Shown: one piece after another, positions 5,204 to 35,428 of the stretch
Layout: every line of letters begins with the position of its first letter
Numbering within the stretch: the stretch's first letter is position 1
Origin: Candidatus Dormiibacterota bacterium
GTDB lineage: Bacteria; Chloroflexota; Dormibacteria; Aeolococcales; Aeolococcaceae
Assembly: GCA_963718525.1 (NCBI GenBank)
Contig: OY970355.1
Location: 2,848,001 to 2,912,000, forward strand
Direction of reading: 5' to 3'
DNA length: 64,000 nucleotides
Program-made: the position numbers and the translations under genes
Notes under the pieces: model-generated
Database searches by the model: none
Seen by the model: the letters and a program-made list of their open reading frames with translations, nothing else
What the model was told of the DNA's origin: nothing

Positions 5204-5214
5204 CGTAATCGGTC

Positions 5215-7588: not shown

Positions 7589-7605
7589 TGATGTCTCCTC
7601 GGGAA

Positions 7606-8938: not shown

Positions 8939-9011
8939 GGGGACAGCATGGCCATGAGCGGAGGCAGATGAAAGTGGGAAAACCCTACGTTCCGGCGGCT
9001 CCGACCCTACG
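8939..9011 (-). promoter_or_regulatory. Activator-type promoter with tandem CGTAGGGT repeats (copy 1)
   Basis: Minus strand CGTAGGGT-N14-CGTAGGGTTTTCCC-AC-TTTCAT-N17-CATGCT-N6-ATG; same layout recurs at 38154-38226. Confidence 0.65.
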
Positions 9012-20769: not shown

Positions 20770-20782
20770 CCGACCCACGAGG

Positions 20783-21422: not shown

Positions 21423-21447
21423 GGGTCAACTGTAGCGATCACAGGCG

Positions 21448-21861
21448 GTGCTCAGTGACCCATCCAGCAGCGTTGCCAACCGGCTGCGCCGATGGGATGA
21501 TGCGCCGGTGCGGAGGCAATCCTGGTTGGTGGTGCTCGGCCTGTTCCTCGTGGCAGCATTTGCGCTCGCGGCAGGCGCGTTCGTACTCGGTTCCCACAAC
21601 CCCGTCGTGACGGTTGTCACCGCTGACGCGCGGGTGGGCGACAACGTCGCGACTGCATTCGACGGTGGATGGGCCTACGGAATCCCGATGGATGTGGCAT
21701 GGCTCGGGACCGACAACAGCTGGCGTCAAGATGGTCAACCGGCATGTCTCGCATGGAACGGTTCGCCTCGCGACGTCTCGATCCAGTTTGGCTGGGTCCC
21801 AGTCACCTCGCCGGCAGGCTCGAGCTGGCGGCAGGTGGTGTGGGTTTCCTGCAAAAGTTGA
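21448..21861 (+). CDS. Hypothetical exported/membrane-anchored protein
   Basis: One TM then a Trp-rich domain (WAYG..VAW....W...GQPACL...VVWVSC). Confidence 0.65.
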   Translation: MLSDPSSSVANRLRRWDDAPVRRQSWLVVLGLFLVAAFALAAGAFVLGSHNPVVTVVTADARVGDNVATAFDGGWAYGIPMDVAWLGTDNSWRQDGQPACLAWNGSPRDVSIQFGWVPVTSPAGSSWRQVVWVSCKS

Positions 21862-21924
21862 TGACCACCTCGCGGTCCAACTCAGCGCGCTGACGCCGAG
21901 CCAGCGACACGGCGAGACACCATC

Positions 21925-22662
21925 GTGAATTCGTTCATCGCTGACGTGCGGCAGATGATCGTTCCGGGGAGCGATCCACGCCACGGTCCATTGCCACCGC
22001 TGCTGCTTGCGATGACGCTGGTCACCGGCCTCGTCGATGCGTTCAGCTATCTGCTCCTCGGACACGTCTTTGTCGCCAACATGACGGGGAACATCGTGCT
22101 GCTCGGATTCGCGCTGGTCGGCGCGCCGGGCTTCTCCATCGCCGCATCCTTGCTTGCCGTGGCGGCCTTCTCGCTCGGGGCGGTAGTGGGCGGTAAGGTG
22201 GGAACGCTCCTCGGTCAGGATCGCGGCCGTCTTTTCCGGACAACGGCGGCGATTCAGGCGATGTTTCTCGCGTGTACGGTGGCGCTCGCCGCCGCAGGCG
22301 GCAATCCGGTCCCTGATGCGTACAGATACTCGCTGATCATCGTCCTCGCCGTCGCCATGGGCATCCAGAACGCCACTGCCCGCAGGCTCGCAGTGCCCGA
22401 CCTGACGACCACCGTCCTCACCCTGACCATGACCGGCCTCGCCGCGGACAGCGCCATCGCGGGCGGTCAGGGATCCAGGGCCGGCCGCCGTCTCATGGCC
22501 GTTGCCGCGATGCTGATCGGGGCCGTCGTCGGTGCCGCACTCGTTGTGAATGGGCGCATCGTCTACCCATTGATCCTCGCGCTGGTCGTGACAGCAATCG
22601 CCGCAATTGCGAGTCGTGCGCTTGGAGGATCCGATACACGCTGGCTGCATGTCGAGCGCTGA
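21925..22662 (+). CDS. YoaK/DUF1275 family membrane protein
   Basis: TGLVDAFSY, VFVANMTGN, AMGIQNA, DLTTTVLT. Confidence 0.92.
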   Translation: MNSFIADVRQMIVPGSDPRHGPLPPLLLAMTLVTGLVDAFSYLLLGHVFVANMTGNIVLLGFALVGAPGFSIAASLLAVAAFSLGAVVGGKVGTLLGQDRGRLFRTTAAIQAMFLACTVALAAAGGNPVPDAYRYSLIIVLAVAMGIQNATARRLAVPDLTTTVLTLTMTGLAADSAIAGGQGSRAGRRLMAVAAMLIGAVVGAALVVNGRIVYPLILALVVTAIAAIASRALGGSDTRWLHVER

Positions 22663-22682
22663 GTCCACGGCGCTGGTGGGAC

Positions 22683-22855: not shown

Positions 22856-25750
22856 CTACTGCCCGGTGTCGACTGCTGCACGGATCAACTCCACCGGGTG
22901 CTGCGCCCGGCGGCCGGTGCCATGCTCGATCTGCTGGCGGCATGACACACCGGTAGCGGCAATCACGGTGTCGGCGTTCTCCGAGTTGACCGCCGGGAAG
23001 AGACGCATCCCGCCGATCTGCATCGACAGATCGTAGTGCTCGGTCTCAAAGCCGAACGACCCAGCCATGCCGCAGCAGCCGGCATCGAGCTCGACCACAG
23101 TCGCGCCAGGGATCCTGGACAGCAGTCGCACCGTGCGCGACGTCCCGGTAAGCGCCTTCTGATGGCAATGGCCGTGGAAGAGGAATCGCCGGCCCGCCAA
23201 TGGCGACGCCGGATCCATGCGGAGGTGGCCCGCGTCGATCGCGTCGAGAAGCAGCTCGTCCACGAGCCGTACCTGACGAGCGACCAGCTCTGCGTCGGGA
23301 TTCCCCGGCTGCAGCGCGATGTGCTCCTCAGCGAGCGTGAGGATGCACGATGGTTCGACGCCGACGATCAGCGCGCCGTCCCGCGCCATCGCGGCCAGGC
23401 ACCGCGTCATCGCCTGCGCGGCGCGGGACGCGTCATCGAGGCGGCCCTTGGAGATCGCGGCTCGCCCGCAGCACTGATTCCCGATCAGCTCGACCTGCCA
23501 TCCGGCAAGCTCGAGCAGTTCCACGGCTGCAATCCCGATACCCGGTTCCGTGAAAGTCGTGAATGAGTCGGCGAGCATCGCAACGCGTCCGAGCGATCCT
23601 GAACGTCGAGGTTCGCGGCCCGCATGCCAGCGAAGCAGCGTGCGCCGTTGGAATCGCGGCAGTGGCCGCCGCCGGCTGATCCCGAGCACGCGTTCCATAA
23701 GCGCACGCGATCCGGGCAGCGACGTGGCCCGGTTCGAGAGGGGCGCGAGCGCAGACCCCAACCGGTTGACCCGGCGCGCTGCTGCAAAGAACCGCGCACG
23801 CCGCGGGACGCCGTGAATTCCCTGGTACTGAAAGAGAAACTCGCTCTTCATCGAAGCCATGTCCACACCAAGCGGGCATTCGCTCTTGCACGCTTTGCAC
23901 TCCAGGCAGAGGTCGAGAATGTCGTGCAAACGGTCGTCGCCGAGTGCGCCCCGCGGATCCGGTTGCGACAGCGCGAACACCAGCGCATTGGCGCGGCCGC
24001 GGGTGCTGTGCTCCTCCTCGCGAGTCGCCATGTACGACGGGCACATCACACCGGTGGATCCCTTGCGACAGAGGCCGATGTTCATGCATCGATCTGCCGC
24101 GCCGCGCATTCCACCCGTGCCGGCGAATGAGAGACGTGTCGAGAGGGCGAACGTGGGAGGCAGGGCAACATCGCGGATGTTCTCGGTCATCGGCGGCGCG
24201 TTGACGATTTTCCCCGGATTCATCAGCGCGTTGGGGTCGAAGAGCTGCTTCACCTCGCACATCGCGCCGTAGAGCTCCTCACCGAAGACGATGCGGTTGA
24301 ACTCGCTCCGCGCGAGCCCATCGCCGTGCTCGCTGGAATTGGCACCGCCGAATTCGGTGACCAGGTCACGGATCTCCTCGGCGACGACACGCATGGTGGC
24401 GAGCTCGGCGGGCCGAGTGAGATCCATGAAGGGGCGGATGTGGAGGCATCCGACCGAGCAGTGACCGTAGAACCCTGCCGACAGGCCGTGTCGCTCGAGC
24501 ACGGCGGCGAAGCGCCGGACGTATTCCGGGAGACGCGCGGGGTCCACTGCCGTGTCCTCGATGAATGCGATCGGCCGGCGCGTGCCCTCACTGGCAGCCA
24601 TGAGCAGCCCCAACCCCGCAGACCGGACCTTGAGCAACGCGGATTGCTGCTGCGGCGTCGTCGCTCTGAGCGTGTGATAGCCATGACCGTGGCGCTCCCA
24701 GAGTTCGGCGAGCCGATCCACGCCTGCAGCGGCTTCGGCTGCGCTGTCGCCGTCGAAGGTGACGAACAGGAGCGCGCCGGGATCGCCCTCGAGGATGGAA
24801 CCCAAGGCCGCGTATTCGATCTTCCGACGCGAGAGTTCGAGGATGGTGCGGTCGATCAGTTCCACCGCACTCGGGCTTAGGCTCAGCGCATCGTCGGTGG
24901 CGGCAACAGCGTCGGTGACCGACGCGAAATGGCCCACCGCGATCGCCTTGGCGTTCGGCAGGGGAACCAGTCGCACCGTGGCCTCCGTCACGATGACCAG
25001 GGTCCCTTCGGAGCCGACCACGAATCGTGCCAGGTTGAAGGGGGGCTCTCCGGCAAGACGGTCGAGCCGGTAGCCGCCGGCACGGCGCCAGTACTGCGGA
25101 TAGCCGTTGGCGATCGCGCCGCGATGCTCCTCGACCATCGCGGGCAGCTTCTCGTGAATCCGTCGCTCGAGGCTGTCCACTGTGCCGTGTGACCGCGCGA
25201 CGTCGAGCTGTCCCAGTGTCGCGACGCTTGCATCGCTGAGCACGACGTCGAGCTCCTCGACGTGATCGATGGTCATGCCGTGGACCACCGATCCGCTGCC
25301 TGCGGAGTTGTTGCCGATCATGCCGCCGATCGTCGCCCGGTCGCTCGTGGACGTATCAGGGCCGAAGAGCAGGCCGCGCTGGCGTGCCGCGCTGTTGAGA
25401 TCGTTCTGCACGACGCCGGGTCCAACCCGTGCGGTGCGGTTCTCCGCGTCGAGCGCAATGATTTTGTCCATGTGGCGTGACGTGTCGATGATCACCGCAC
25501 GACCGACGGTCTGACCCGCCAGGCTCGTACCCGCGCCTCGGGGCAGCATTGGTACTCGGAGGCGGGCGCAGACGTCAACCGCAGCCGCGACATCGGCCGC
25601 ATCGCGCGGGAAGACGACCGCGAGTGGCTCGATGCTGTACATGCTGGCGTCGCTGGAGAACAGGTGTCGCGTGTACGCATCCGCTCGCACCTCGCCGGCC
25701 ATAGCGGAGCGAAGCTCCATCTCGAGCTCGCCGAGGGGCGCAGCGTCCAC
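22856..25750 (-). CDS. FAD-linked, 4Fe-4S-containing 2-hydroxy-acid dehydrogenase (GlcD+GlcF/YdiJ-like fusion)
   Basis: PRGAGTSLAGQ, GGMIGNNSAG, GSEGTL, SEHGDG, CMNIGLC..MCPS, CLECKACKSECP, CCG motifs, HGHCHQ. Confidence 0.93.
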   Translation of the reverse strand: MDAAPLGELEMELRSAMAGEVRADAYTRHLFSSDASMYSIEPLAVVFPRDAADVAAAVDVCARLRVPMLPRGAGTSLAGQTVGRAVIIDTSRHMDKIIALDAENRTARVGPGVVQNDLNSAARQRGLLFGPDTSTSDRATIGGMIGNNSAGSGSVVHGMTIDHVEELDVVLSDASVATLGQLDVARSHGTVDSLERRIHEKLPAMVEEHRGAIANGYPQYWRRAGGYRLDRLAGEPPFNLARFVVGSEGTLVIVTEATVRLVPLPNAKAIAVGHFASVTDAVAATDDALSLSPSAVELIDRTILELSRRKIEYAALGSILEGDPGALLFVTFDGDSAAEAAAGVDRLAELWERHGHGYHTLRATTPQQQSALLKVRSAGLGLLMAASEGTRRPIAFIEDTAVDPARLPEYVRRFAAVLERHGLSAGFYGHCSVGCLHIRPFMDLTRPAELATMRVVAEEIRDLVTEFGGANSSEHGDGLARSEFNRIVFGEELYGAMCEVKQLFDPNALMNPGKIVNAPPMTENIRDVALPPTFALSTRLSFAGTGGMRGAADRCMNIGLCRKGSTGVMCPSYMATREEEHSTRGRANALVFALSQPDPRGALGDDRLHDILDLCLECKACKSECPLGVDMASMKSEFLFQYQGIHGVPRRARFFAAARRVNRLGSALAPLSNRATSLPGSRALMERVLGISRRRPLPRFQRRTLLRWHAGREPRRSGSLGRVAMLADSFTTFTEPGIGIAAVELLELAGWQVELIGNQCCGRAAISKGRLDDASRAAQAMTRCLAAMARDGALIVGVEPSCILTLAEEHIALQPGNPDAELVARQVRLVDELLLDAIDAGHLRMDPASPLAGRRFLFHGHCHQKALTGTSRTVRLLSRIPGATVVELDAGCCGMAGSFGFETEHYDLSMQIGGMRLFPAVNSENADTVIAATGVSCRQQIEHGTGRRAQHPVELIRAAVDTGQ

Positions 25751-25826
25751 GGCGTCGTTCAGCCCTGCTGGGGAGCGATCGACGGCGTGGATTCCGATCG
25801 AGATGGCAGCCTCAACTCACGACGTC

Positions 25827-27047
25827 TCACCGGACGACACCTGCATCTCGCAGTGCCGCGATGTCCTCTGCCGTGTACCCGAACTCCCCAAGAACTTCAT
25901 CGGTGTGCTGGCCGAGCGCGGGCGGTGGACGGCGCACGGTTGCGGTGTACTGAGAGAGCTTGATCGGAGACCCCGTCATGCGCAAAGTCCCCGCAGTGGG
26001 GTGCCGGGCGGTGAGCACCATGTCACGCGCCTGCACCTGGGGATGCGCGAGCGCGGCATCGACAGCGTTGATGGCGCCGGCGGGAATGCCGACGCCGGCC
26101 AGCTCCTCGGCCCATGCGGCTGAACCCCTGGCGGCGAGCGCATCCTCGATCAGCGGTATCAGCGCGGTGCGATTCGCAACCCGCTGCGGATTGGTGACGA
26201 AGCGAGGATCATCGACCAGTTCAGGGAGGCCGATGAGCGGCGCGAACCGCTGCCAGAGCGTGTCATTGCCCACCGCGACCATGAGGTGACCGTCGGCGGT
26301 GCGAAGTGCTTGGTACGGGACGATGCTCGGATGCGCCGACCCGTAGCGCCGCGGGATTTCACCGGATGCGAAGTAGCCCCCTGCGAGGTAGGTCAGCGAT
26401 GCGATCTGTCCATCGAGCAGTGAGATGTCGATCCATTCGCCGCGGCCTGTGGTGTGGCGCGCATGCAGGGCCGCGAGCATGCCGATGGCAGCCCACATCG
26501 ATGCACCGAGGTCGGCCGCGGAGTTGCCGACACGCACCGGTTCGCCGTCGGCTTCGCCCGTGACGCTCATCAGGCCGCCCAGTGCCTGCGCGATGGCGTC
26601 GTAGCCCGGCTCCGAAGCATACGGACCGGTCTGCCCAAACCCTGAGATGGACGCATAGATCAATCCCGGGTTGCGCGCGCTCAGGTCGTCGTAGCCGAGC
26701 CCAAGCCGCCCGGCTGTTCCGGGACGGAAATTCTCGACGACGATGTCGGCACGGTCGGCGATGCGCAGCGCGATCTCGCGTCCCTGCGCGCTTTTGAGGT
26801 CGACGGCGATGCCGCGCTTGTTGCGATTCACTGAGAGGAAATACGCGGACTGATCGCCCTGGTACGGCGGCGCCCACTCTCGCGTGTCGTCACCGGTGCG
26901 TGGATTCTCGAGCTTGATGACATCGGCGCCGAGGTCTGCAAACACCATCGTCGCAAACGGCCCGGAGAGAATCCGTGACAGGTCGAGAATGCGGACACCT
27001 GCAAGCGGACCGGATGACGGCGACGGCTGCGGGATGTGAGAGTCCAT
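25827..27047 (-). CDS. Class III (CaiB/BaiF) CoA-transferase
   Basis: PLAGVRILDLSR.LSGP, ADLGADVIKLE, NRNKR, ENFRPG, catalytic Asp in SAADLG. Confidence 0.95.
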   Translation of the reverse strand: MDSHIPQPSPSSGPLAGVRILDLSRILSGPFATMVFADLGADVIKLENPRTGDDTREWAPPYQGDQSAYFLSVNRNKRGIAVDLKSAQGREIALRIADRADIVVENFRPGTAGRLGLGYDDLSARNPGLIYASISGFGQTGPYASEPGYDAIAQALGGLMSVTGEADGEPVRVGNSAADLGASMWAAIGMLAALHARHTTGRGEWIDISLLDGQIASLTYLAGGYFASGEIPRRYGSAHPSIVPYQALRTADGHLMVAVGNDTLWQRFAPLIGLPELVDDPRFVTNPQRVANRTALIPLIEDALAARGSAAWAEELAGVGIPAGAINAVDAALAHPQVQARDMVLTARHPTAGTLRMTGSPIKLSQYTATVRRPPPALGQHTDEVLGEFGYTAEDIAALRDAGVVR

Positions 27048-27059
27048 CGAGCAATGCCC

Positions 27060-27815
27060 CTAGGACAGCACGCCGACGTAGAGCTTGACGACCTCGTCAT
27101 TGTGGAGGAGGTCCTGGCCTCTGCCCTCGAGGCGGTTCCTGCCGAGCACGAGCACGTATGCCCACTGCGCGTGGCGCAGGGTCTCGCGGGTGTTCTGCTC
27201 CACCACGACGACGGCGACGTTGGTGGCACGCACCTGCTCGATGCGCTCCCACACGGCACTCTGGAACTTCGGGGAGAGACCGGCGGAAGGCTCGTCGAGC
27301 AGCAGCACGGCCGGGTCCACCATGAGCCCGCGGGCCATCGCGAGCATGGTGCGCTGGCCGCCGCTCAGGGTCTCCGCGTGGCGGCGGTGCGCGATCTTCA
27401 AATCGGGGAAGAGCTGGTAGAGCTCCTCAGCACGTTCTCGTAACCCATGCTTGCGGCTGTACCCGCCCATCTCCAGGTTCTCCTGGACGCTCAGTTGCGG
27501 AAAGACGTTGGCCACCTGCGGCACATAGGCAATGCCTCGGCGCACGAGCTTCTCTGAAGGCAATCCCGTGGCGTCGCGGCCCTCGACGGCGACGGTGCCC
27601 GCCTTTGCGGTGATCACACCAGCGATGGCTTTGAGCAGCGTCGACTTCCCGGCCCCGTTGGGGCCGACGATGGCGGTGATGGCACCACGATGCGCGCCGA
27701 TGCTGACGTTCTCGACAATCGGCGGTCCCCCGTACCCGGCCGTGAGGCCTTCCACGTCGAGCGCCGCGACGGTGGCCGTCGCCATCGGTGCGGGATCAGG
27801 CGTCAGCGTCGTCAT
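27060..27815 (-). CDS. livF: HAAT ABC transporter ATP-binding subunit
   Basis: GPNGAGKST, LSGGQR, LLLDEPSAGL, VEQN. Confidence 0.93.
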   Translation of the reverse strand: MTTLTPDPAPMATATVAALDVEGLTAGYGGPPIVENVSIGAHRGAITAIVGPNGAGKSTLLKAIAGVITAKAGTVAVEGRDATGLPSEKLVRRGIAYVPQVANVFPQLSVQENLEMGGYSRKHGLRERAEELYQLFPDLKIAHRRHAETLSGGQRTMLAMARGLMVDPAVLLLDEPSAGLSPKFQSAVWERIEQVRATNVAVVVVEQNTRETLRHAQWAYVLVLGRNRLEGRGQDLLHNDEVVKLYVGVLS

Positions 27816-28584
27816 AAGTTGGCATCTCTCCGAGATAGGCGTCGACGACAGCGGGGTTACCGCGCAATTGGTCGAATGGTCCTTCAGCGATCACGTGACC
27901 CTCGGCCATCACGACGACCTGGTCAGTGACTCGCTCGATGAACGGGAGGTTGTGCTCGACGATAACGACGGACGTTCCCGCCGTGACAAAGGCGAGCACA
28001 GCCGTGGCCATGCGCTCGCCAAGAACCGGGTTGACGCCGCCCATCGGTTCGTCGAGGATCACCAAACGTGGCGCTGCCATTCGGATTCTCCCGAACTCGA
28101 GAAGCCGCTTCTGGCCGCCGCTCAGGTTGCCCGCGCGCTCGTTGCGGAGGTGCAACAGTCCGAACTCGTCAAGGATGGCGCGGGCCTGGAGCAACTGATC
28201 GTTGGCACGCTCCTTCTCTGCTCGCGACGGCCCGCGCAGTGACCGCCAGAAGCGCTCGCGCCGCGGCTCGAAACAGGCGAGGATCAAATTCTCCAGAACA
28301 GTCAACCCCGGCCACTCCCGTGGACTTTGGAAGGTCCTGATCAAGCCCATCCGCGAGATGACGTGGGGCGCCTTCCCCTGGACCTCCTTGCCTTCAAACC
28401 GGACGCTGCCGGTGTCCGGTACTTTGAAGCCCGAGATGAGGTCGATCGCGGTGCTCTTGCCGGCGCCGTTGGGGCCGATCAACCCGGTGATCTGTCCTTC
28501 TTCCGCCGTGAATGAGCAGGCGTTCACCGCCTGCACACCGCCGAAGTGCTTGTGCAGCCCCTGTACCTCGAGGAGCGCTGTCAT
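27796..28584 (-). CDS. livG: HAAT ABC transporter ATP-binding subunit
   Basis: GPNGAGKST, RTFQ, LSGGQKR, LDEPMGG, VEHN, VVDAYLG. Confidence 0.93.
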   Translation of the reverse strand: MTALLEVQGLHKHFGGVQAVNACSFTAEEGQITGLIGPNGAGKSTAIDLISGFKVPDTGSVRFEGKEVQGKAPHVISRMGLIRTFQSPREWPGLTVLENLILACFEPRRERFWRSLRGPSRAEKERANDQLLQARAILDEFGLLHLRNERAGNLSGGQKRLLEFGRIRMAAPRLVILDEPMGGVNPVLGERMATAVLAFVTAGTSVVIVEHNLPFIERVTDQVVVMAEGHVIAEGPFDQLRGNPAVVDAYLGEMPTYDDADA

Positions 28585-29594
28585 GCCGCGCCGGTGTCGA
28601 GCGATGGTCCCGTGATGGCGGTCTCGACGGCGACGGCCGCCCCCCCTTTCCCGGCGGCATCCTTGTCGCGCATGCGTCGTTCGGGAAGCAGGCCCTGGGG
28701 CCGGAACCTGATGAACAGCACCAGCACGATGCCGGTGAGGATCAACCGAAACGCCGGAGCGTAGCTTGGTTGGCTCGAGATCTCCGGCAGGTATCGCGTC
28801 GCCTCCTGCAGGCCCATAACCATGACGGCGACGCCGAGGATGACGCCGCGGTTGCTGCCGCGACCGCCAACGAGAATCGCGGCATACAGGACGATCGTTT
28901 CCACCGGCGACCATGCCGACGGATTGAACGCGCTGAGGTAGCCCGCGAAGAGCGCCCCGCCTAACCCGCCGATACCGGCGCCGATGACGTACGCCTTGAG
29001 CTTCATCGCGTAGATGTTGCGTCCGAACGCAGCCGCGGCTCGCTCATCCTCCCGCAGGCTGCGCAGCGCAAGGCCGAACCGGCTGCTGCTCAGCCGCGTG
29101 ACCATGACGAGCACCACCACGAGCACCACGACACACAGGCCGAGGTAGAAGAACGGATACGCCGTGAAATCGAGGCCGAGGACATCACCCATCGGGTCGA
29201 ACAGACCGGAGAGTCCGTTGTAGCCGTTGAAGAGGGGCACGAACTGCCCTGCAAAGACGTACAGCACATACACGGCGCCGAGCGTGACGATCGAAAAGTA
29301 GATGCCACGCAGATGGCGCAGCGCGATCGCCCCGACGACGAGCGCGAGCAGCATTGCGCTGACGACAGCGATGGCAACGGCAATTGGAAACGGGAGTGTG
29401 AGACCGAGGATGTACTGCGTCGGAGAGCTCGCGGGTCCGATCGTCAGCACCAGGGTCATGTAGGCGCCGAGCGCGACATAGCCGTAAAACGCCAAGTCGA
29501 AATCGCCCGACCACCCCCAGATGATGTTGAGCCCCAGCGCCATGATCGCGAAGATCGTGCCCTCGGTGAGGACTGAGACCAGGTAGTCGATCAT
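28581..29594 (-). CDS. livM: HAAT ABC transporter permease
   Basis: ALGLNIIWG, LRGIYFSIVTL, LRSLREDERAA, LVGGRGS. Confidence 0.92.
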   Translation of the reverse strand: MIDYLVSVLTEGTIFAIMALGLNIIWGWSGDFDLAFYGYVALGAYMTLVLTIGPASSPTQYILGLTLPFPIAVAIAVVSAMLLALVVGAIALRHLRGIYFSIVTLGAVYVLYVFAGQFVPLFNGYNGLSGLFDPMGDVLGLDFTAYPFFYLGLCVVVLVVVLVMVTRLSSSRFGLALRSLREDERAAAAFGRNIYAMKLKAYVIGAGIGGLGGALFAGYLSAFNPSAWSPVETIVLYAAILVGGRGSNRGVILGVAVMVMGLQEATRYLPEISSQPSYAPAFRLILTGIVLVLFIRFRPQGLLPERRMRDKDAAGKGGAAVAVETAITGPSLDTGAA

Positions 29595-30472
29595 TCGAAG
29601 ACGCTCCGCCTCCCGCCGACGAAGAGGCCCCGAGGACGCACGAGTATCACGAGCGACAGAATTGCGAATGCGAATGCCAGGTTGTAGCTGGCGCTCACGT
29701 AGCCCCCGAAGAACTCGAGCGCGATGCCCACGATGATCCCACCGACCAGTGTGCCCACCGCCTTGCCGAGGCCGCCTGCCACCGCTGCCGTCAGCGTGAT
29801 CAGGAAGAAGCTGAAGCCGGAATACGGGCTGAAGGTGCCCACGCTCTCAGCGAGGATGAAGCCGGCATAGCCTCCGATCAGCCCGGCAAGCAGCCAGGTG
29901 AGTGCGGCGACCCGGTTGGCATTGATCCCGGAAACCCGCGCCAGTGAGCGGTTCTGCGACACCGCGCGCAACGACTTGCCGAAGCGCGTGTGCTGGATGA
30001 TCACGTAGAGGAGCGCGGTGATCACCACCGTCGAGACCATGATCTGGATCTCGGTGTCGGTCCACAGGAAGGGGCCGACTGTCCGGGGCGCTCCCTGCGG
30101 CACCGAGTAACCGAGGTTGGACGCGCCGAAGATGATGACCAGCACGTTCTGAATCACCAGCGAGACTCCGAGCGTGGCGATGAAGGTCGGCAGCCCGCCG
30201 ATGCCCTTGCGCACGAACCTGTCGACGACGCCGTTGTGAACCGCGAGCGCGAGTGCCCCGCCGCCCGCCGCCGCGGCGAGTCCCGAAAGGATCACGCCGC
30301 CGCCGTGCTGCTGGACCAGGTACGCGCAGTAGGCCCCGACGGTGAGGATCTCACCGTGGGAGAGGTTGGCGACATTCGTCACTGAGTACTCGAGCGTGAA
30401 GGCCAGTGCCGACAGCGAGAGAATCGCCGCGGCGACCAGCCCAAAGCCGAGCGTGAGCAGAGCCTCGTGCAC
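29591..30472 (-). CDS. livH: HAAT ABC transporter permease
   Basis: ANLSHGE, TRFGKSLRAVSQN, GGLG, RPRGL. Confidence 0.92.
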   Translation of the reverse strand: MHEALLTLGFGLVAAAILSLSALAFTLEYSVTNVANLSHGEILTVGAYCAYLVQQHGGGVILSGLAAAAGGGALALAVHNGVVDRFVRKGIGGLPTFIATLGVSLVIQNVLVIIFGASNLGYSVPQGAPRTVGPFLWTDTEIQIMVSTVVITALLYVIIQHTRFGKSLRAVSQNRSLARVSGINANRVAALTWLLAGLIGGYAGFILAESVGTFSPYSGFSFFLITLTAAVAGGLGKAVGTLVGGIIVGIALEFFGGYVSASYNLAFAFAILSLVILVRPRGLFVGGRRSVFE

Positions 30473-30568
30473 TAGAGCGATTCTCCAACGATTTGACGGC
30501 GCGGCGCGAGACGGTCGGGGACGGGACGGGGGCAGCGCACAGCGGGTGGGCGCGCCGCCCCCGAAGCG

Positions 30569-31876
30569 TCAGGGAGTCGCTGCGGCAAGGGCCGTCGCTG
30601 TCAGGAGAGCGATCTGCACCTCAGCCCCGGTGCTGGCATCGGCCTGGAATGCCCCGTACGGGCCGAAGACGTTGTTGAAGGCGTTGTAGATGAGGTCGCC
30701 GCTGGCCCCGTCCATCTTGATCTTGGTTCCGGCCTTGATGCCCGCGAGACACGCCTGGTATGTGTCGCACGGGGTGCCGGGCGGATTCGTCACCGCCTTC
30801 ATGTCGGCGATGACGGCCGGGCCGTCGGTGGTACCCGCCTTGTCCATGGCCAGCGCGAGGCTCAGGACGGCGTCGTATGCGTAGTTCGCGCCGGCGATCG
30901 GCTGGGCATTGGCACCGTTCTGGGCGGCGAAGGCTGCGGCGAAGTTGTCCGCCGCGGCGCCGGTTGCGTTGGTCCCGTAGATCGACACGAGGTGGGAATG
31001 TGCGACGGGGTACGTGATCGCCTTGAGGTAGTCATTGCCGCTCGTCACGTCGGTCCCAACGATCGGAATCGCGAGGTTGTCCAGCTCCTTGAAGTTCTGG
31101 AACATGACCGCTGCGGTCTGCGGATCGAGCTGGGTGAAGATCACGTCGGGATGCGCGGCGATGATCTGCTGCACCTGCGTGAGATAGGAGGTCTGGCCGG
31201 GCGCGACCGTGATGTTGGACACGATCGTGTTGCCGAACTTCTGCCATGTCGCCGTGATCGGCTTGGGGATGGTCTGCTGCGCGATGTCCGACGAGAACAG
31301 CAGCGCCGCGGTCTTGTAGCCCTTCTGCTGAGCGTACAGCGCCATCGCGACACCGAGCTGCGAGTCGGACGGGCTATCCCGCCAGAGGTAGGGGTTGCTG
31401 TTCTTGTCGAAGGCCGTGCTCCCGCCCTGGAACTCCGTCGGGATCTTGGCTGCGCTCACGATCGGCGCCACCGCGGCGATCTCCTGCGTCTCCGGCCCGA
31501 TGATGCCGCTCACGCTGTCTGCCGAGAGGAGCTGTCGCACCGCCGGGACCGCATCGGCTTCATCGCACTGGGTATCGGCGTGGCTGAGGTCAAGCTGCTT
31601 CCCGAGCACGCCACCGTTGTCGTTGATGACCTTCTGCGCCACCTGTGACCCCTGCAGCATCGCCTGCCCGAGGACCGCAAGCGGACCTGTGAAGCACGAG
31701 AGAACGCCGAACGAGACATGGCCCGCGCTGTCGGTCTTGATGGTGCCGCCGCTGGAGCTTCCAGATGGGCTGGTGCTGCTGCCGCAGGCAGCGACAACGA
31801 TTGCCACCGCGATACCGGTAAGCAGGCGTTTGGGTGCACGTGTCTGTCTGACCCGAGCCAAGGCTGTCGGCGACAC
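30569..31876 (-). CDS. livK: HAAT ABC substrate-binding lipoprotein
   Basis: Lipobox VAAC, INDNGGVLGKQL..ADTQCD, AYDAV, GASG; GGAGG RBS. Confidence 0.9.
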   Translation of the reverse strand: MSPTALARVRQTRAPKRLLTGIAVAIVVAACGSSTSPSGSSSGGTIKTDSAGHVSFGVLSCFTGPLAVLGQAMLQGSQVAQKVINDNGGVLGKQLDLSHADTQCDEADAVPAVRQLLSADSVSGIIGPETQEIAAVAPIVSAAKIPTEFQGGSTAFDKNSNPYLWRDSPSDSQLGVAMALYAQQKGYKTAALLFSSDIAQQTIPKPITATWQKFGNTIVSNITVAPGQTSYLTQVQQIIAAHPDVIFTQLDPQTAAVMFQNFKELDNLAIPIVGTDVTSGNDYLKAITYPVAHSHLVSIYGTNATGAAADNFAAAFAAQNGANAQPIAGANYAYDAVLSLALAMDKAGTTDGPAVIADMKAVTNPPGTPCDTYQACLAGIKAGTKIKMDGASGDLIYNAFNNVFGPYGAFQADASTGAEVQIALLTATALAAATP

Positions 31877-31924
31877 TGTCCAACCTCCGATCAGCGGCCC
31901 AGGTAAGGGCCGTCCCCGATACTG

Positions 31925-32002
31925 GGGCGCAGTCTGCTCCGCGGTGGATAACTATGTCAATGGGTCGGTGGGTAGTCCAATTTTTGCGCGATAATCCACG
32001 CC
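31925..32002. promoter_or_regulatory. Divergent promoter region of the liv operon and gntR
   Basis: Minus TTGACA-N18-CAGACT; plus GATAAT-N7-GTG (leaderless gntR); FadR-like TGGGTCGGTGGGTAGTCCAA between them. Confidence 0.55.
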
Positions 32003-32731
32003 GTGACCCTCGATACATCGCCCCTGCGTCCACTGGGCCGGACGCGACTGTACGAGGACCTCGTCGAACAACTCGGGGAATTCGTCGTCCGAACCAACCT
32101 CCGGGTCGGGGAACGTTTCCCGCCGGAGCGCGAGCTGGCATCCCGGCTCGAGGTCAGCCGGGCGTCGTTGCGGCAGGCGCTGGCGGTGCTCGAAGCCCAG
32201 GGATTCATCGAGGTCCGGCACGGCGGGGGCGTCTTTCTCCGGCGCAGCCGTGGATTCGGCGGTGTGCTCCACAAGCTCGTGGAGCGGCGAAGCCGGTTGC
32301 CCGAGGTGCTGGAGGCGCGCGAACTCCTCGAGGTGCGACTGGCGGAGCTGGCCGCGACCAGACGTGAGGAGGTTGACCTGGTCGCGATGCGATCTGCGCT
32401 GGTTGCCATGGAGGCAGAGATCGCGTCTGCCGGCCTCGGCATCGACGGTGATGCGGCATTCCACCATGCCATCCACCGCGCCGGAAACAACAAGGTCTTG
32501 GAGCATGTCATCGACGGGCTCGCCCTCGCGATTCACGAAACTCGCGTGGAGTCGCTCGCCGAGCCGGACCGGCCGAGGAATTCGCTGCTGGCCCATCGGC
32601 GAATCCTGGAAGCGATCGAGGCCCAGGACGTGGCGCGCGCAGCGGACGCGATGCGCGCGCATCTGCGCCAGGTGGCCGACGTTGCGCTGCTTCGATGGGA
32701 GCCACCGGTCGAAGACTCTCCCCTGCCATGA
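32003..32731 (+). CDS. FadR/GntR-family regulator
   Basis: PPERELA..LEVSRASLRQAL; FCD domain D..FH..I...NN, H..I. Confidence 0.95.
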   Translation: MTLDTSPLRPLGRTRLYEDLVEQLGEFVVRTNLRVGERFPPERELASRLEVSRASLRQALAVLEAQGFIEVRHGGGVFLRRSRGFGGVLHKLVERRSRLPEVLEARELLEVRLAELAATRREEVDLVAMRSALVAMEAEIASAGLGIDGDAAFHHAIHRAGNNKVLEHVIDGLALAIHETRVESLAEPDRPRNSLLAHRRILEAIEAQDVARAADAMRAHLRQVADVALLRWEPPVEDSPLP

Positions 32732-34146
32732 CACCGCCTTCGTGGCTGGAGCACGTGACCGCGGTTGCGGAGCGTGGCCGCGCCATGCTCGGGCGTGGCG
32801 CCGGCGCGACCAACAGCACGGGCAGTCTGGCCGTACTCTGCGACCGCCTGATCGCACGGCGGGGTGAGGCCTCCGGTCTCGCGCTCGCCACCGAGCTCGT
32901 GCGTGCGCTCGAGCGCATGAGCGGGTCCGAGACCGCTGAATTCCTGGAGGTGCTCGCCGGCGAGTTCTCTCCCCCGCCCGAAGCCGTTGCCTCCGCAGTC
33001 GCCCGATGGCGGTCGGATCCCAGCGACGACGCTGTGATGGCGCTCGCGACCGCAACCGAGGCCCCTCGCCAGGAGCTGTTCCGGCGGCTCAACATGGTCG
33101 GTGGCGGCGCCGCTGCGCTGGTGAAATTGCGTGGGCAGTTGCTTACGCTCCTTCCGACGCGCCCGCACCTGCGCGCTGTCGACGCCGACCTCCGGCATCT
33201 GCTGTCGTCGTGGTTCAACGGGGGCTTCCTGCGTCTGGAACAGATCAGCTGGGGAACGCCTGCGGCAACGCTGGAACGGCTGATCGCGTACGAGGCGGTG
33301 CATGAGATCCATGGATGGGACGACCTGCGCCTGCGCCTGGCCGCTGACCGGCGGTGTTTCGCGTTCTTCCATCCGTTGCTGCCTGGAGAGCCGTTGATCT
33401 TCGTGGAGATCGCGCTCACCCGCGATCTCCCGGCGGCGATTGCTCCACTGCTCGCTGCGGAGCGACCAATCACCGAAGCGCGTTCGGCGCATACCGCCGT
33501 CTTCTACTCGATCAGCGACTGTCAGCCTGGACTGCGCGGGATATCGTTCGGCAACTTCCTCATCAAGCAGGTCGTCCGAGAGCTCTCCGTCGAATTACCG
33601 GGACTGCGAACCTTTGGGACGTTGTCGCCGGTCCCCGGCCTCGCGCGGGCGGTGACCGATCGCACCGATCGCGAGGGCTTCACCGACGAACGGCTGCTGG
33701 CGCTCACCGCGGGTCACCACGACGAATTGCGCCGGCTCGCGTCGACGGGAGACGAGCTCGAAGCGCTGTCGCAGCTGCTCGAAGCCCCCGCGCCATACCC
33801 GCCGATGGTTGCGCAACTCGCCGGGCGCCTTGCGTTCGCCTATCTCCTGCACGTCAAGGTCGGGGCCCGCATCGCCGACAGCGTTGGCCATTTCCACCTC
33901 TCCAACGGCGCCCGCCTCGAGCGCATCAACCCCGACGCCGACCTGTCACACCGCGGGCGCCAGTCGCATGCGGTGATGGTCAATTACGTCTACGAGCCGC
34001 ATCGGTTGGAGGTGAACCACGAGCGCTACGTCCGCTCCGGCCACGTCGCCACCGCGCCGTCGCTGAGTGGCGAGATCAAGTCTGTCGATGCGGCCTGGTC
34101 GAACGTACGTCGCCGCGAGCGGCGTGCAGCGCGCGCTGCACGCTGA
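32728..34146 (+). CDS. matA: Malonyl-CoA decarboxylase family protein
   Basis: RQELFRRLN, SWFN.GFL, YEAVHEI, FYSISDCQPGLRGISFGNFLIK, TLSPVPG, HFHLSNGARL; ATGA-coupled to gntR. Confidence 0.95.
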   Translation: MTPPSWLEHVTAVAERGRAMLGRGAGATNSTGSLAVLCDRLIARRGEASGLALATELVRALERMSGSETAEFLEVLAGEFSPPPEAVASAVARWRSDPSDDAVMALATATEAPRQELFRRLNMVGGGAAALVKLRGQLLTLLPTRPHLRAVDADLRHLLSSWFNGGFLRLEQISWGTPAATLERLIAYEAVHEIHGWDDLRLRLAADRRCFAFFHPLLPGEPLIFVEIALTRDLPAAIAPLLAAERPITEARSAHTAVFYSISDCQPGLRGISFGNFLIKQVVRELSVELPGLRTFGTLSPVPGLARAVTDRTDREGFTDERLLALTAGHHDELRRLASTGDELEALSQLLEAPAPYPPMVAQLAGRLAFAYLLHVKVGARIADSVGHFHLSNGARLERINPDADLSHRGRQSHAVMVNYVYEPHRLEVNHERYVRSGHVATAPSLSGEIKSVDAAWSNVRRRERRAARAAR

Positions 34147-34188: not shown

Positions 34189-35379
34189 TCAGGCGACCGC
34201 CAGCTTACGCACGACCATGCTCTCGTAGGTGTTCATGAGACCGTCGACCGTTGTTCCGATCGAGTACAACTCGCTCACGCGCTGCCGAGCCGACGCCGCC
34301 AGCTGACGTCGCAAGCCGGCGTCGTCTCGCAACGTGTCGAGTGCGCTCCCGAGCGATGGCTCCAACGGATGCGCGGGAAGCACAATTCCGGCTCCCGACA
34401 CGAGCCGGCCATCATCGCCGACATCCGTGGCCACCACGGTACACCCGGCCGCCATGGCCTCGAGCAGAGACAATGACAAGCCTTCCGCGGTGGACGGCAG
34501 GACAAACACATCGATGCCGCGCAGGACGTCGATGCATTGCTGACGGTCGTGAATGGCACCGAGCATGACAATGCGGGGATCCTTGTACGCGAGGCGACTG
34601 ATCCGCAACTGTTGCGCGCCGCTGCCGGCGATCACCAGGCGGCTCTCGCTCGACCACTGTCGTCGCTGGAATGCATGGACGAGGTCGAGGATTCGCTTCT
34701 CTGGATCGAGGCGGCCAAGATAGCCCACCACAAACTCTGCTCCCAGGCCGGAGCGCATCTGGGACGGCCCCGGAGTGATCTCGGTCGTATCGACACCATT
34801 GGGCAGGACATCGATGCGATCGCGTGCGCAGCCCACGGAGACCAGCAGTTCCCGCTGGTCGTGGCTCAGCGCGATGCATCGGTCAGCCAGCGACAGTGTG
34901 TGCGCATGAAACCGGTACAGGGCATGGAAGATGCGTCCACGGCCATCGCGTAGCTGCGCGTACGGCAGGTGCACTGTCGCAACGGTGGGGATACCCCTTC
35001 GGCGGCAGTGAGCCAGGATCCACGTGTCGAGCAACGAGAAGCTCAGCGACACGTGAACGACGTCAGGACGGAAGGCCATGAGCTCGCGAGCGATGCGGCC
35101 TGCCGTTCCCGGCGAGGGCATGATCACGGTCTTGAAGCGGGCTGATGACAGGGACACGGACTGCGCGCCCGGCACTGCTTCACCATCGCGACGATGGAAG
35201 AAGAAGGCGACCTCGATGCCGTGTCGCCGGAGGGCACTGACCGTCGTCGAGCTATATGAGCTCAGCCCGTCCGCTCGCCGACCTCCGCCGTGGCCGAACC
35301 AGGCGACCCGAAGAGGTCCACCCGGTGACGTGCCGCCAGTCCCCGAGTGCCCGTCCCCATCCCCCGCCGACGGAAACAT
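34189..35379 (-). CDS. Glycosyltransferase family 4
   Basis: PNGVD, YLGRLDPEKR, FVLPSTAEGLSLSLLEAMAAG, ATDVG. Confidence 0.93.
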   Translation of the reverse strand: MFPSAGDGDGHSGTGGTSPGGPLRVAWFGHGGGRRADGLSSYSSTTVSALRRHGIEVAFFFHRRDGEAVPGAQSVSLSSARFKTVIMPSPGTAGRIARELMAFRPDVVHVSLSFSLLDTWILAHCRRRGIPTVATVHLPYAQLRDGRGRIFHALYRFHAHTLSLADRCIALSHDQRELLVSVGCARDRIDVLPNGVDTTEITPGPSQMRSGLGAEFVVGYLGRLDPEKRILDLVHAFQRRQWSSESRLVIAGSGAQQLRISRLAYKDPRIVMLGAIHDRQQCIDVLRGIDVFVLPSTAEGLSLSLLEAMAAGCTVVATDVGDDGRLVSGAGIVLPAHPLEPSLGSALDTLRDDAGLRRQLAASARQRVSELYSIGTTVDGLMNTYESMVVRKLAVA

Positions 35380-35380
35380 A

Positions 35381-35401
35381 CCTGTCATTTTACTTGACAG
35401 G
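35381..35401. promoter_or_regulatory. Perfect palindromic operator over the -10 of the GT4 gene
   Basis: CCTGTCA-TTTTACT-TGACAGG; minus-strand TAAAAT-N7-ATG. Confidence 0.7.
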
Positions 35402-35428
35402 CTTACTATCCGCGGATTGGAGCCGGCG

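Follow-up and report, generated by a model that had tools for sequence, protein, structure and literature searches.

The window, a stretch of 64,000 nt, contains a divergon of nine genes, and searches against Pfam and NCBIfam confirmed all nine at the coordinates given by the first-pass annotation. On the minus strand, a gene for a 964-aa FAD/Fe-S/CCG dehydrogenase (22856-25750; Pfam, NCBIfam and PDB) and a gene for a 406-aa class III CoA-transferase (25827-27047; PF02515, 446 bits, full length) are accompanied by the genes of a LivKHMGF importer of the amino acid/amide (HAAT) type. The latter encode a LivF-type ABC ATPase (27060-27815; Pfam and NCBIfam), a LivG-type ABC ATPase (27796 to about 28584; Pfam ABC_tran), the LivM-type (28581-29594) and LivH-type (29591-30472) permeases, both matching PF02653, and a LivK-type (Peripla_BP_6) periplasmic binding protein (30569-31876; PF13458, 160 bits). 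LivF is 86-98% identical across the syntenic relatives, with full-length matches except in the fragmentary locus L032. The start of LivG is a predicted one: the open frame extends to 28914, the ABC_tran domain is matched from residue 131 of this long frame onwards, and the 262-aa form has full-length matches in relatives. Compared with solved structures, the LivK-type protein yielded distant matches only, of at most 68 bits.

The plus strand encodes a GntR/FCD-family regulator of 242 aa (32003-32731; PF00392 and PF07729) and a malonyl-CoA decarboxylase (MCD) family protein of 472 aa (32728-34146; Pfam MCD_N, 89 bits, and MCD, 290 bits). Because the TGA stop codon of gntR (32729-32731) overlaps the ATG start codon of the MCD gene (32728-32730), the translational coupling by an ATGA overlap that had been proposed for this gene pair is real. 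In an alignment of 15 intergenic regions, the divergent intergenic region contained a conserved block at 31951-31982, to which no strand was assigned, with the pattern ACTATGTCAATGG...GTGG..TAGTCCAATT. Its core was kept in MCD-type and crotonase-type clusters alike, and the block is a candidate GntR operator. The -10-like hexamer GATAAT (31990-31995, plus strand) ends 7 nt upstream of the GTG start codon of gntR, and ATAAT was kept in 13 of the 15 regions. This position suggests that the gntR-MCD transcript is leaderless.

Enzymes encoded at the locus

The substrate of this locus had been proposed to be a 2-hydroxymalonate, possibly tartronate. In the dehydrogenase, a GlcD-like N-terminal half and a GlpC/GlcF-like C-terminal half are joined in one polypeptide, and its Pfam domains are FAD_binding_4 (132 bits), FAD-oxidase_C (159 bits), Fer4_8/Fer4_17 and CCG. 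The scores against NCBIfam models were 548 bits for YdiJ (cut-off 1350; residues 15-588 only), 233 bits for GlpC (cut-off 278) and 226 bits for GlcD (cut-off 568). The nearest curated model is that of the D-2-hydroxyglutarate dehydrogenase YdiJ and not GlcD, which argues against tartronate as the substrate. Among the PDB entries, glycolate oxidase 9qgz was the top match (165 bits), and LDHD and LctD reached 129 and 123 bits. We propose that this D-2-hydroxyacid dehydrogenase acts as a glycolate dehydrogenase.

The CoA-transferase scored below all NCBIfam equivalog cut-offs (succinate-glutarate, 380 bits, cut-off 750; CoA:oxalate, 318 bits, cut-off 522). Human succinate-hydroxymethylglutarate CoA-transferase was its top PDB match (367 bits), and YfdE reached 287 bits. 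It belongs to the dicarboxylate-acting SUGCT/YfdE-like group of class III, and we propose that it activates the incoming (hydroxy)malonate with CoA taken from the product acyl-CoA.

The MCD protein aligned with two solved bacterial malonyl-CoA decarboxylases, 4ksf and 4ksa, with 364-367 bits over residues 10-447 of 472. The motifs YSIS, FHLxNGA and MVNY are conserved, and these canonical-looking active-site motifs count against tartronate; the motif comparison revealed no sign of an altered pocket. The group-specific W308A exchange and GFT insertion are also present in relatives outside such a gene context.

Conservation of the cluster and exchange of the decarboxylase

The nine genes form one stretch in 14 of 17 same-genus relatives, including the fragmentary loci L032 and L034; of the remaining three, two are broken by contig ends and one carries MCD on a separate contig. 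In these 17 relatives, the gene arrangement is not due to chance. Among 36 genus relatives, the dehydrogenase was present in all 18 genomes with MCD, in two more whose cluster lacks MCD, and not in any of the 16 others, and thus it travels with the cluster in this genus. A reordered set, with the order aminotransferase-LivHMGFK-CoA-transferase-GntR-MCD and divergent from the dehydrogenase, was found in a Solirubrobacteraceae metagenome-assembled genome and supports the tartronate interpretation. Three observations count against it: one relative has a cluster without any decarboxylase (in a genome that is just 71% complete), a second has MCD away from the rest of the cluster, and dehydrogenase orthologs occurred without a CoA-transferase in three of the 17 loci having at least 6 kb on each side.

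Dehydrogenase orthologs of at least 57% identity were collected from 74 metagenome loci, most of which represent related soil lineages and are not independent, a further point against tartronate. A CoA-transferase was present in 32 of them, and 23 of these 32 contained exactly one kind of malonyl-thioester decarboxylase, namely a crotonase lacking the hydratase glutamates (14 loci), MCD (7 loci) or an AccD/AccA-type carboxyltransferase (2 loci); two kinds occurred together in none. Eight of the nine loci without a decarboxylase end at a contig edge where it would sit, and among the loci that no contig end truncates, the CoA-transferase adjoins one of the three types in 23 out of 24. Both hydratase glutamates are missing in all 14 crotonases, and the module crotonase belongs to NCBIfam subfamily NF004796 and not to the methylmalonyl-CoA decarboxylase (MMCD) equivalog. 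Two close relatives, G023 and G184, have a crotonase instead of MCD, together with a CoA-transferase of 77-80% identity and a dehydrogenase of 77% identity. The decarboxylase slot is conserved, but its occupants differ in fold; the crotonase and the carboxyltransferase are putative decarboxylases, which counts against tartronate. The expected co-conservation of the three enzymes therefore held at the level of function, with dehydrogenase, CoA-transferase and one malonyl-type decarboxylase in 23 loci, but not for MCD itself, which is replaceable and missing from some close relatives.

An unrelated pathway, which we regard as quite improbable, would start with the dehydrogenase acting on a D-2-hydroxy-dicarboxylate, such as D-malate or D-2-hydroxyglutarate; a C4-C6 dicarboxylate would be the substrate of the CoA-transferase, as it is for SUGCT, and MCD would serve in an accessory or repair function. 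The top score of YdiJ for the N-terminal half of the dehydrogenase, the proximity of the CoA-transferase to succinate-glutarate and hydroxymethylglutarate transferases, and the relatives without MCD are all consistent with it. However, every curated cut-off was missed widely, a malonyl-type decarboxylase adjoins the transferase almost throughout the uncut loci, and the clusters showed neither an acyl-CoA dehydrogenase nor a hydratase that has the catalytic glutamates.

Malonate as a possible alternative substrate

The absence of MatB claimed in the first-pass annotation was borne out: the cluster contains no MatB-type synthetase, and the best match to a rhizobial MatB-position protein in the whole 3.34-Mb genome is 36% identical. 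In proteobacterial loci with a MatB-like gene beside MCD, the identity to this protein is 54-71%. The conclusion that malonate is thereby excluded proved to be weak, because a class III CoA-transferase can substitute for the synthetase. In two Hyphomicrobiaceae loci (L063 and L065), which also encode GntR and a transporter of the TRAP or TctC type but no dehydrogenase, a single protein of 906-908 aa comprises both CoA-transferase and MCD, and such a fusion was found in 76 of 120 among the database clusters listed. CoA-transferase and MCD are thus functionally tied, in favor of the tartronate interpretation, and the absence of the dehydrogenase near the proteobacterial fusion clusters speaks against it.

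The main alternative, which we consider rather doubtful, is plain malonate catabolism. The CoA-transferase would replace MatB, taking CoA from acetyl-CoA or succinyl-CoA, MCD would yield acetyl-CoA, and the dehydrogenase (with the aminotransferase, where present) would be a separate glycolate or D-lactate unit, merely adjacent or co-regulated. This is favored by the canonical motifs and high scores of MCD, by the Hyphomicrobiaceae fusions, by dehydrogenase-aminotransferase pairs that lack a CoA-transferase, and by the existing record of a malonate CoA-transferase activity (EC 2.8.3.3). MatC is a malonate carrier family, and some related loci encode carriers of this family as well as MatB-like ligases (38-41% identical), which also favors malonate over tartronate. 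Malonate catabolism leaves unexplained why the dehydrogenase comes and goes with the cluster, why it is retained when two other folds replace MCD, and why the transporter is co-directional with the dehydrogenase and the aminotransferase with CoA-transferase and decarboxylase (most ECH/MatC-type loci; L042, L186, L189).

Glyoxylate-linked neighbors and the proposed pathway

The commonest neighbor of the dehydrogenase is an aminotransferase, which adjoins it in 38 of the 74 loci and is co-directional with CoA-transferase and crotonase. Among solved structures, it matched serine-glyoxylate aminotransferase with 360 bits (runner-up 164), and its top NCBIfam model was the aspartate-glyoxylate aminotransferase BhcA (438 bits, under the cut-off). 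A glycerate kinase lies beside the dehydrogenase-aminotransferase pair in 3 of 80 loci, and in L186 the dehydrogenase is followed by a HAD protein with phosphoglycolate phosphatase as top score, under the cut-off. In 7 of the 11 loci with a MatC carrier (PF07158, 183 bits), this gene points in the same direction as that of the dehydrogenase; in the remaining 4 it lies upstream and on the other strand. In this arrangement, the glycolate half and the CoA half of the cluster are interleaved. Against tartronate, an aminotransferase is missing from the cluster in the window, and the genome contains no malate synthase beyond a 34-bit partial match and no glyoxylate carboligase above the cut-off. It encodes AGXT-family aminotransferases, a possible outlet for glyoxylate.

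Taken together, the co-conservation, the aminotransferase neighbor, the direction of MatC and the glycerate kinase indicate that the dehydrogenase oxidizes glycolate to glyoxylate, and this step in turn points to a 2-hydroxymalonate as the input. The substrate proposed by the first-pass annotation has thus gained independent support from genomic context, and the premise taken from the absence of MatB is weak. The gene content, synteny, gene fusion and alternation of decarboxylase types observed here are best explained if uncultured soil bacteria share a catabolic module of which this divergon represents one version; the named records with the module belong to the Chloroflexota class Dormibacteria and to Solirubrobacteraceae. 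Its core would comprise the class III CoA-transferase, a malonyl-thioester decarboxylase (MCD or one of its two replacements), a membrane-linked FAD/Fe-S D-2-hydroxyacid dehydrogenase and the GntR/FCD regulator, with LivKHMGF here and a MatC-type carrier elsewhere as dicarboxylate importer, and with a serine-glyoxylate-type aminotransferase in most variants other than that of the window.

Our best reading, tentative and somewhat short of an even chance, is a CoA cycle that decarboxylates 2-hydroxymalonate to glycolate, followed by oxidation to glyoxylate; we infer the substrate, the direction, the CoA donor and the dehydrogenase substrate as follows. Tartronate would be imported, and the transferase would move CoA from glycolyl-CoA onto it, yielding tartronyl-CoA and free glycolate. 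The decarboxylase would convert tartronyl-CoA to glycolyl-CoA and CO2, closing an ATP-free cycle driven by decarboxylation. Glycolate would be oxidized to glyoxylate by the dehydrogenase, and glyoxylate would be converted to glycine, in this organism via an AGXT-family enzyme encoded elsewhere in the genome.

The same cycle might act on another 2-substituted malonate, which seems unlikely to us: methyltartronate would yield D-lactate and then pyruvate, aminomalonate would yield glycine, and with mesoxalate hydrate the dehydrogenase would first oxidize tartronate and glyoxylate would be formed directly. Chemically, it is enough that the alpha-carbon of the thioester bears a carboxylate, the dehydrogenase family includes the D-lactate dehydrogenases LDHD and LctD, the importer is of the HAAT type, and MMCD-like crotonases act on 2-substituted malonyl-CoA, the MMCD model giving 130 bits with the module crotonase (under the cut-off of 257). 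However, the aminotransferase is closest to glyoxylate-specific enzymes, pyruvate can do without an outlet of its own, the dehydrogenase would have no function if aminomalonate were the substrate, and none of the three compounds is known to be as common in nature as tartronate or malonate.

Comparison with known systems

As in rhizobial matR-matABC, a GntR-family regulator lies beside an MCD-family decarboxylase, and a malonate-type dicarboxylate would be imported and decarboxylated as CoA thioester, with a MatC-type carrier in some related modules. Unlike matR-matABC, the window has a class III CoA-transferase in place of MatB, the LivKHMGF importer and, as an integral part, the FAD/Fe-S 2-hydroxyacid dehydrogenase. 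Rhizobial matABC is not known to include a 2-hydroxyacid dehydrogenase, and none of 26 proteobacterial loci with a MatB-like gene contained a match to the dehydrogenase.

The Mdc malonate decarboxylase uses an ACP-based mechanism with thioester recycling. In Mdc, in the combination of EC 2.8.3.3 with MCD (EC 4.1.1.9), and in the tartronate cycle proposed here, the thioester of the decarboxylation product is recycled to activate the next substrate, and therefore no ATP is spent. The differences in the cycle proposed here are free CoA as carrier, the class III transferase and the 2-hydroxyl group of the proposed substrate. EC 2.8.3.3 is described in PMC8307300 as an old activity without a KEGG function number, and the fused CoA-transferase-MCD proteins may represent its gene.

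Glycolyl-CoA and tartronyl-CoA would be shared with the synthetic tartronyl-CoA (TaCo) pathway, which differs in carboxylating rather than decarboxylating and in its unrelated enzymes, an engineered biotin carboxylase and a reductase. Likewise, a GlcD/GlcF-like dehydrogenase beside an SGAT/BhcA-like aminotransferase, with glycerate kinase in three loci, resembles GlcDEF, the photorespiratory pair of SGAT and glycerate kinase, and BhcA, which catalyzes a step of the beta-hydroxyaspartate cycle. Unlike GlcDEF, the dehydrogenase is one fused polypeptide without GlcE, below every curated cut-off, and with tartronate as substrate it would be fed by a decarboxylating CoA cycle. The sbm-ygfDGH operon of E. 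coli, which converts succinate to propionate, encodes both a CoA-transferase and a methylmalonyl-CoA decarboxylase of the crotonase fold, and in this respect it is the precedent for modules of the crotonase type; its transferase is of another class, and it has neither dehydrogenase nor aminotransferase.

Among the matches listed for tartronyl-CoA, titles and abstract openings concerned synthetic biology, carbon-fixation engineering and enzyme chemistry, and named no natural microbial pathway; nor was a description of a natural pathway from tartronate via glycolate to glyoxylate found in the literature. The combination of CoA-transferase, malonyl-CoA-type decarboxylase and glycolate-type dehydrogenase recurs in many soil bacteria, and its simplest reading would be an ATP-free route from tartronate via glycolate to glyoxylate.

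Gene content and organization of the cluster

The window is part of a genome assembled as one contig of 3.34 Mb (G000), and Pfam and NCBIfam scans recovered every cluster gene that the first-pass annotation had listed. The minus strand carries a 964-aa dehydrogenase (22856-25750), in which a GlcD-like FAD domain is fused to a GlpC/GlcF-like Fe-S/CCG half, a full-length class III CoA-transferase (25827-27047), and livF, livG, livM, livH, and livK (27060-31876). After a gap of 126 bp, the plus strand carries the gene of a GntR/FCD regulator (32003-32731) and that of a 472-aa protein of the malonyl-CoA decarboxylase (MCD) family (32728-34146). The TGA of gntR overlaps the ATG of the MCD gene (ATGA), in agreement with the translational coupling that had been proposed. 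A regulator with GntR and FCD domains is thereby placed next to the decarboxylase gene, which is also a trait of matR-matABC.

The intergenic block 31951-31982 has a core that is conserved in 15 aligned divergent regions, from MCD-containing and crotonase-containing clusters (see below) alike, and is a candidate operator. A GATAAT motif 7 nt ahead of the GTG start of gntR is a putative leaderless promoter. LivK had only distant matches among solved structures (at most 68 bits), too remote to suggest a ligand.

The flanking genes look unrelated to the cluster. A pterin-4a-carbinolamine dehydratase gene (20500-20991, minus strand) was absent from all 17 loci of relatives, a GT4 glycosyltransferase gene (34189-35514, minus strand) was present only in the closest of them, and a TetR regulator gene lies at 36817-37434 (plus strand). 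An open frame of 409 aa downstream of the dehydrogenase gene (21439-22668, minus strand) matched no Pfam family, and none of the 17 loci showed a counterpart; it was not counted as a cluster member and may not be a real gene.

Family assignment of the three enzymes

The MCD protein exceeded the Pfam gathering scores of both the MCD_N domain (89.1 bits, cut-off 22.4) and the MCD domain (289.9 bits, cut-off 23.2), and over nearly its full length it resembled the solved bacterial enzymes 4ksf (367 bits, residues 10-447) and 4ksa (364 bits). The motifs YSIS, FHLxNGA, and MVNY, which we take to surround the catalytic Ser and His, are conserved. A comparison of 19 sequences linked to the cluster context with 78 others yielded no consistent differences except A124V, K184R, W308A, a GFT insertion, and a C-terminal tail. 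These were discarded as substrate determinants, because they are clade features that also occur in relatives outside this context (L129-131 and gammaproteobacterial MAGs), and are therefore uninformative on the substrate.

The CoA-transferase matched the CoA_transf_3 domain over its entire length (446 bits, profile positions 1-366 of 366), and it stayed below the cut-off of every substrate-specific NCBIfam equivalog: succinate-glutarate scored best (380, cut-off 750), followed by CoA:oxalate (318, 522), mesaconate (296, 700), and formyl-CoA (273, 442). A quick tree that took in the three clades of the module and the fused proteobacterial forms described below had weak deep nodes (71% SH-aLRT) and placed the G000 paralogs on long branches, so it did not establish orthology between those clades and the fused forms. 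Outside the window, the G000 contig has at about 2113000-2135000 three paralogs of the class III CoA-transferase (27-39% identity) and paralogs of the Liv-type transporter, together with the genome's only match to a malate synthase domain.

The dehydrogenase has a GlcD-type FAD and a GlcF-type Fe-S/CCG Pfam domain in one chain, and it scored below the level of the GlcDEF equivalogs (GlcD 226, cut-off 568; GlcF 52, cut-off 333); for GlcE, there was merely a 33-bit partial match inside the dehydrogenase itself. The model of the D-2-hydroxyglutarate dehydrogenase YdiJ (1018 positions) matched only the N-terminal half (residues 15-588) with 548 bits, below its cut-off of 1350. The best solved match was glycolate oxidase, followed by D-lactate dehydrogenases. 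Because that best match scored only 165 bits, homology alone does not settle the substrate. Homologs of 37-48% identity occur frequently across Chloroflexota (in 113 of 401 genomes) and were not accepted as members of the module, since the context was unrelated in two of three inspected loci. The third locus (L135 of genome G272, 4621-10495) contains a CoA-transferase gene (52% identity) and, in divergent orientation, the gene of an AMP-binding ligase with 43% identity to MatB, after which comes a dehydrogenase homolog of 46% identity; the locus may represent a synthetase-using cousin of the module.

Distribution in the genus and family

Within the genus, the MCD gene was found in 18 of 36 further genomes; none of 24 genomes of the sister family had it. 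Seventeen of the 18 loci were fetched; G018 was omitted because its matches lie at contig ends. All nine genes occur in one stretch in 14 of the 17, two of which (L032, L034) are fragmentary; two further loci are cut by contig ends, and in G005 the MCD gene lies on a separate contig. Orthologs of the dehydrogenase (at least 72% identity) were present in the same 18 genomes; G023 and G028 also had one, and the remaining 16 had none. G028, which is 71% complete, has the cluster with neither MCD nor crotonase. Because the genomes are close kin and the genes physically linked, this distribution reflects joint gain and loss rather than independent co-evolution.

In G005, G008, and G034 (loci L032, L034, and L125), the dehydrogenase gene and, in some, other cluster genes are split or contain in-frame TGA codons, which could be due to assembly errors or to decay of the cluster. 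One contig titled Candidatus Saccharimonadales (L040) contains the complete cluster, 82-98% identical to that of Dormibacteria, and is probably mis-binned or mislabelled.

In another Dormibacteria family, three loci contain MCD genes of 58-59% identity with no CoA-transferase, dehydrogenase, LivK, permease, or GntR gene nearby; these were rejected as members. An order-wide sample of 300 other Solirubrobacterales genomes contained no MCD gene and yielded no further independent cases, which leaves few independent lineages.

The decarboxylase gene is exchanged within a conserved context

In G023 and in G184 (another genus, same family), the GntR gene and LivKHMGF are combined with, in this order, a CoA-transferase gene (77-80% identity), a gene for a crotonase-family protein of 260 aa, and the dehydrogenase gene (77%). 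A dehydrogenase of 79% identity is also encoded in G238. The MCD query had no match in either genome and, conversely, G000 and the MCD-type loci contained no homolog of the crotonase at E <1e-20. The two positions that hold the catalytic glutamates of hydratases are occupied by Gln and Ile, so this crotonase is not an ordinary hydratase.

Metagenomes were scanned with an alignment of four dehydrogenases, and the resulting 80 loci were analyzed by tblastn with all cluster proteins and by Pfam searches of the unassigned neighbours. In 74 loci, the dehydrogenase was at least 57% identical to that of the window, and 32 of the 74 contained the CoA-transferase gene. Exactly one decarboxylase-type gene adjoined the transferase gene in 23 of these 32 loci, and two kinds were never found together: 14 had a crotonase, seven an MCD, and two (L186 and L192) a fused AccD/AccA-like carboxyltransferase (PF01039/PF03255), which in L192 matched the MdcD model weakly (39 bits). 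Of the nine transferase loci without a decarboxylase, all except L153 end at a contig edge where that gene would be expected. A further locus with transferase and crotonase, L203, has a dehydrogenase of 56.5% identity. Where both flanks of the dehydrogenase gene extended for 6 kb or more (17 loci), the CoA-transferase was present in 14 loci, and the other three contained neither transferase nor aminotransferase. The transporter was LivKHMGF in 13 metagenome loci and a MatC-type dicarboxylate carrier in 11 (PF07158, 183 bits in L155; 56-84% identity in tblastn).

Both hydratase glutamates, read off an alignment to PaaF (4fzw) at the GxGxE and PE motifs, which presumably hold the catalytic pair of enoyl-CoA hydratase, are missing in all 14 crotonases; the first site is Q, L, A, or V, and the second is I or V. 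The crotonase of L193 scored above the cut-off of the NCBIfam subfamily NF004796 and, with 130 bits, below the cut-off of 257 for methylmalonyl-CoA decarboxylase. That one decarboxylation step has been filled three times by folds that have no relation or only a distant one to each other (the GNAT-like MCD, crotonase, and carboxyltransferase), and this within a natural tartronyl-CoA cycle, is a combined reading to which we give slightly less than even credence.

Neighbours of the dehydrogenase gene suggest glycolate as its probable substrate

A class V aminotransferase gene lies directly upstream of the dehydrogenase gene in 38 of the 74 loci. Among solved structures, the aminotransferase is closest to a serine-glyoxylate aminotransferase (6pk1, 360 bits; the runner-up scored 164), and among NCBIfam models it scored best with aspartate-glyoxylate aminotransferase BhcA, although its 438 bits do not reach the cut-off of 650. 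In a Solirubrobacteraceae MAG, the aminotransferase gene opens a co-directional array of nine genes (aminotransferase, LivHMGFK, CoA-transferase, GntR, MCD) with the dehydrogenase gene divergent, and a divergent pair of aminotransferase and dehydrogenase genes is also present in another Chloroflexota family (L133). Glycerate kinase adjoins the pair in three of the 80 loci. A HAD protein following the dehydrogenase in L186 had phosphoglycolate phosphatase as its best, weak model (95 bits, cut-off 180); that of L153 had haloacid dehalogenase (75 bits, cut-off 125). Photorespiration proceeds from glycolate via glyoxylate and glycine/serine to glycerate. Because these neighbours together resemble that logic, gene context favours glycolate as the substrate of the dehydrogenase.

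The aminotransferase gene is co-directional with the transferase and crotonase genes, and the MatC carrier gene is co-directional with the dehydrogenase gene in seven of the 11 MatC loci. This interleaving argues for one pathway rather than two neighbouring ones. In six of the 80 loci (L150, L206, L200, L156, L202, and L145), an amidase-signature protein (PF01425; 71-79% alike) is encoded upstream of the dehydrogenase; none of the six has the CoA-transferase, and two (L150 and L206) have the aminotransferase.

Malonate or 2-hydroxymalonate as substrate

The first-pass annotation had inferred from the lack of the synthetase MatB, and from a 2-hydroxy-acid dehydrogenase for which plain malonate has no use, that the substrate is a 2-hydroxymalonate rather than malonate. 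A rhizobial protein in the MatB position, adjoining MCD in L109, was used as the query. MatB is indeed missing from the window cluster: the best ligase of G000 was 36% identical, versus 54-71% for the MatB-like genes that adjoin MCD in other species (26 of 80 loci). The MatC carrier, too, had no homolog in G000 or its MCD-type relatives. The step from the missing synthetase to the exclusion of malonate is weak, because in two Hyphomicrobiaceae loci the class III CoA-transferase and MCD form a single protein of 906-908 aa (L063:8651-11377; L065:4712-7432), preceded by a GntR/FCD gene, with a divergent TRAP or TctC transporter and no dehydrogenase nearby. Both domains were present in 76 of the best 120 database clusters retrieved with the fusion query (proteins P0121-P0199), under the names CoA:oxalate CoA-transferase or MCD family protein. 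As the two are fused in loci lacking the dehydrogenase, transferase and decarboxylase are a real unit able to work without it. The accessible part of a 2021 review (PMC8307300) lists malonate CoA-transferase (EC 2.8.3.3) without a KEGG function number, and the fusion may be a gene for this unassigned malonate CoA-transferase/decarboxylase activity. CoA-transferases 60-68% identical to the transferase half were also observed with other fusion partners (P0208-P0240), namely GNAT acetyltransferase (about 540 aa), PALP, aminotransferase class I/II, or inositol monophosphatase domains.

Of the earlier claim, the gene observation is thus confirmed, and the interpretation is supported in part, with a weak premise and a conclusion that the context favours. 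MCD and the crotonase-type and carboxyltransferase-type decarboxylases act on thioesters with a carboxylate on the alpha-carbon; the input should therefore be a dicarboxylate of the malonate type. The dehydrogenase is always present, and if it has to receive a 2-hydroxy acid as the product, a hydroxyl on the alpha-carbon is also required. Oxalate, despite the CoA:oxalate names in several sources, was rejected on mechanism: the three folds stabilize a thioester enolate, which oxalyl-CoA cannot form.

Tartronate would be the simplest 2-hydroxymalonate. Its CoA ester would be decarboxylated to glycolyl-CoA, from which CoA would pass to the next tartronate, freeing glycolate for oxidation to glyoxylate by the dehydrogenase; tartronate would in this way feed glyoxylate and glycine. 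We regard this scheme, as already outlined in the first-pass annotation, as a serious possibility that stops just short of probable. The same tentative standing, a shade below an even chance, applies to the idea that tartronyl-CoA and glycolyl-CoA occur in nature, as intermediates of a catabolic CoA cycle that spends no ATP, in uncultured Chloroflexota (Dormibacteria) and Actinomycetota of soil.

Several observations weaken the tartronate scheme. The MCD of the window looks like any malonyl-CoA decarboxylase, the fused proteobacterial forms need no dehydrogenase, and the window's own cluster lacks an aminotransferase. As possible outlets for glyoxylate, G000 showed only AGXT-family aminotransferases encoded elsewhere in the genome, which scored 294 and 198 bits with the model of BhcA; malate synthase was represented only by a partial match of 34 bits, and glyoxylate carboligase had no match above the cut-off. 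In addition, the 58-59% identical MCD relatives of the other Dormibacteria family sit in other contexts, independent lineages are few, and the transferase tree is weak at depth.

Relation to known pathways and implications

The cluster belongs to a known kind of system, CoA-recycling malonate-type decarboxylation. To our knowledge, tartronyl-CoA and glycolyl-CoA are otherwise known solely from the synthetic TaCo pathway. That pathway is known as a design only, and the cycle of the window would be its natural counterpart if tartronyl-CoA were confirmed. Judged from titles and the starts of abstracts, the listed literature matches for tartronyl-CoA concerned synthetic biology, carbon-fixation engineering, and enzyme chemistry, and no natural microbial pathway. 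Among the matches listed from openly accessible journals, no paper on microbial tartronate catabolism via CoA esters was found, nor was one among those listed for Dormibacteria with malonate or glycolate. In the accessible part of PMC12994016, tartronate serves merely as an enzyme inhibitor.

If true, tartronyl-CoA would for the first time be part of a natural pathway, and the transferases and decarboxylases for tartronyl-CoA and glycolyl-CoA could provide the TaCo photorespiration bypass with templates or be undesired side activities there. Genes, the fused transferase-decarboxylase among them, would also become available for the CoA-transferase step of malonate-type decarboxylation, which lacks an assignment, and the threefold non-orthologous replacement of one step would be a clean natural experiment for the prediction of function from gene context. 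Furthermore, a substrate and a pathway would be assigned to a module that recurs widely in soil metagenomes and in Dormibacteria, an uncultured lineage with poorly known carbon sources.
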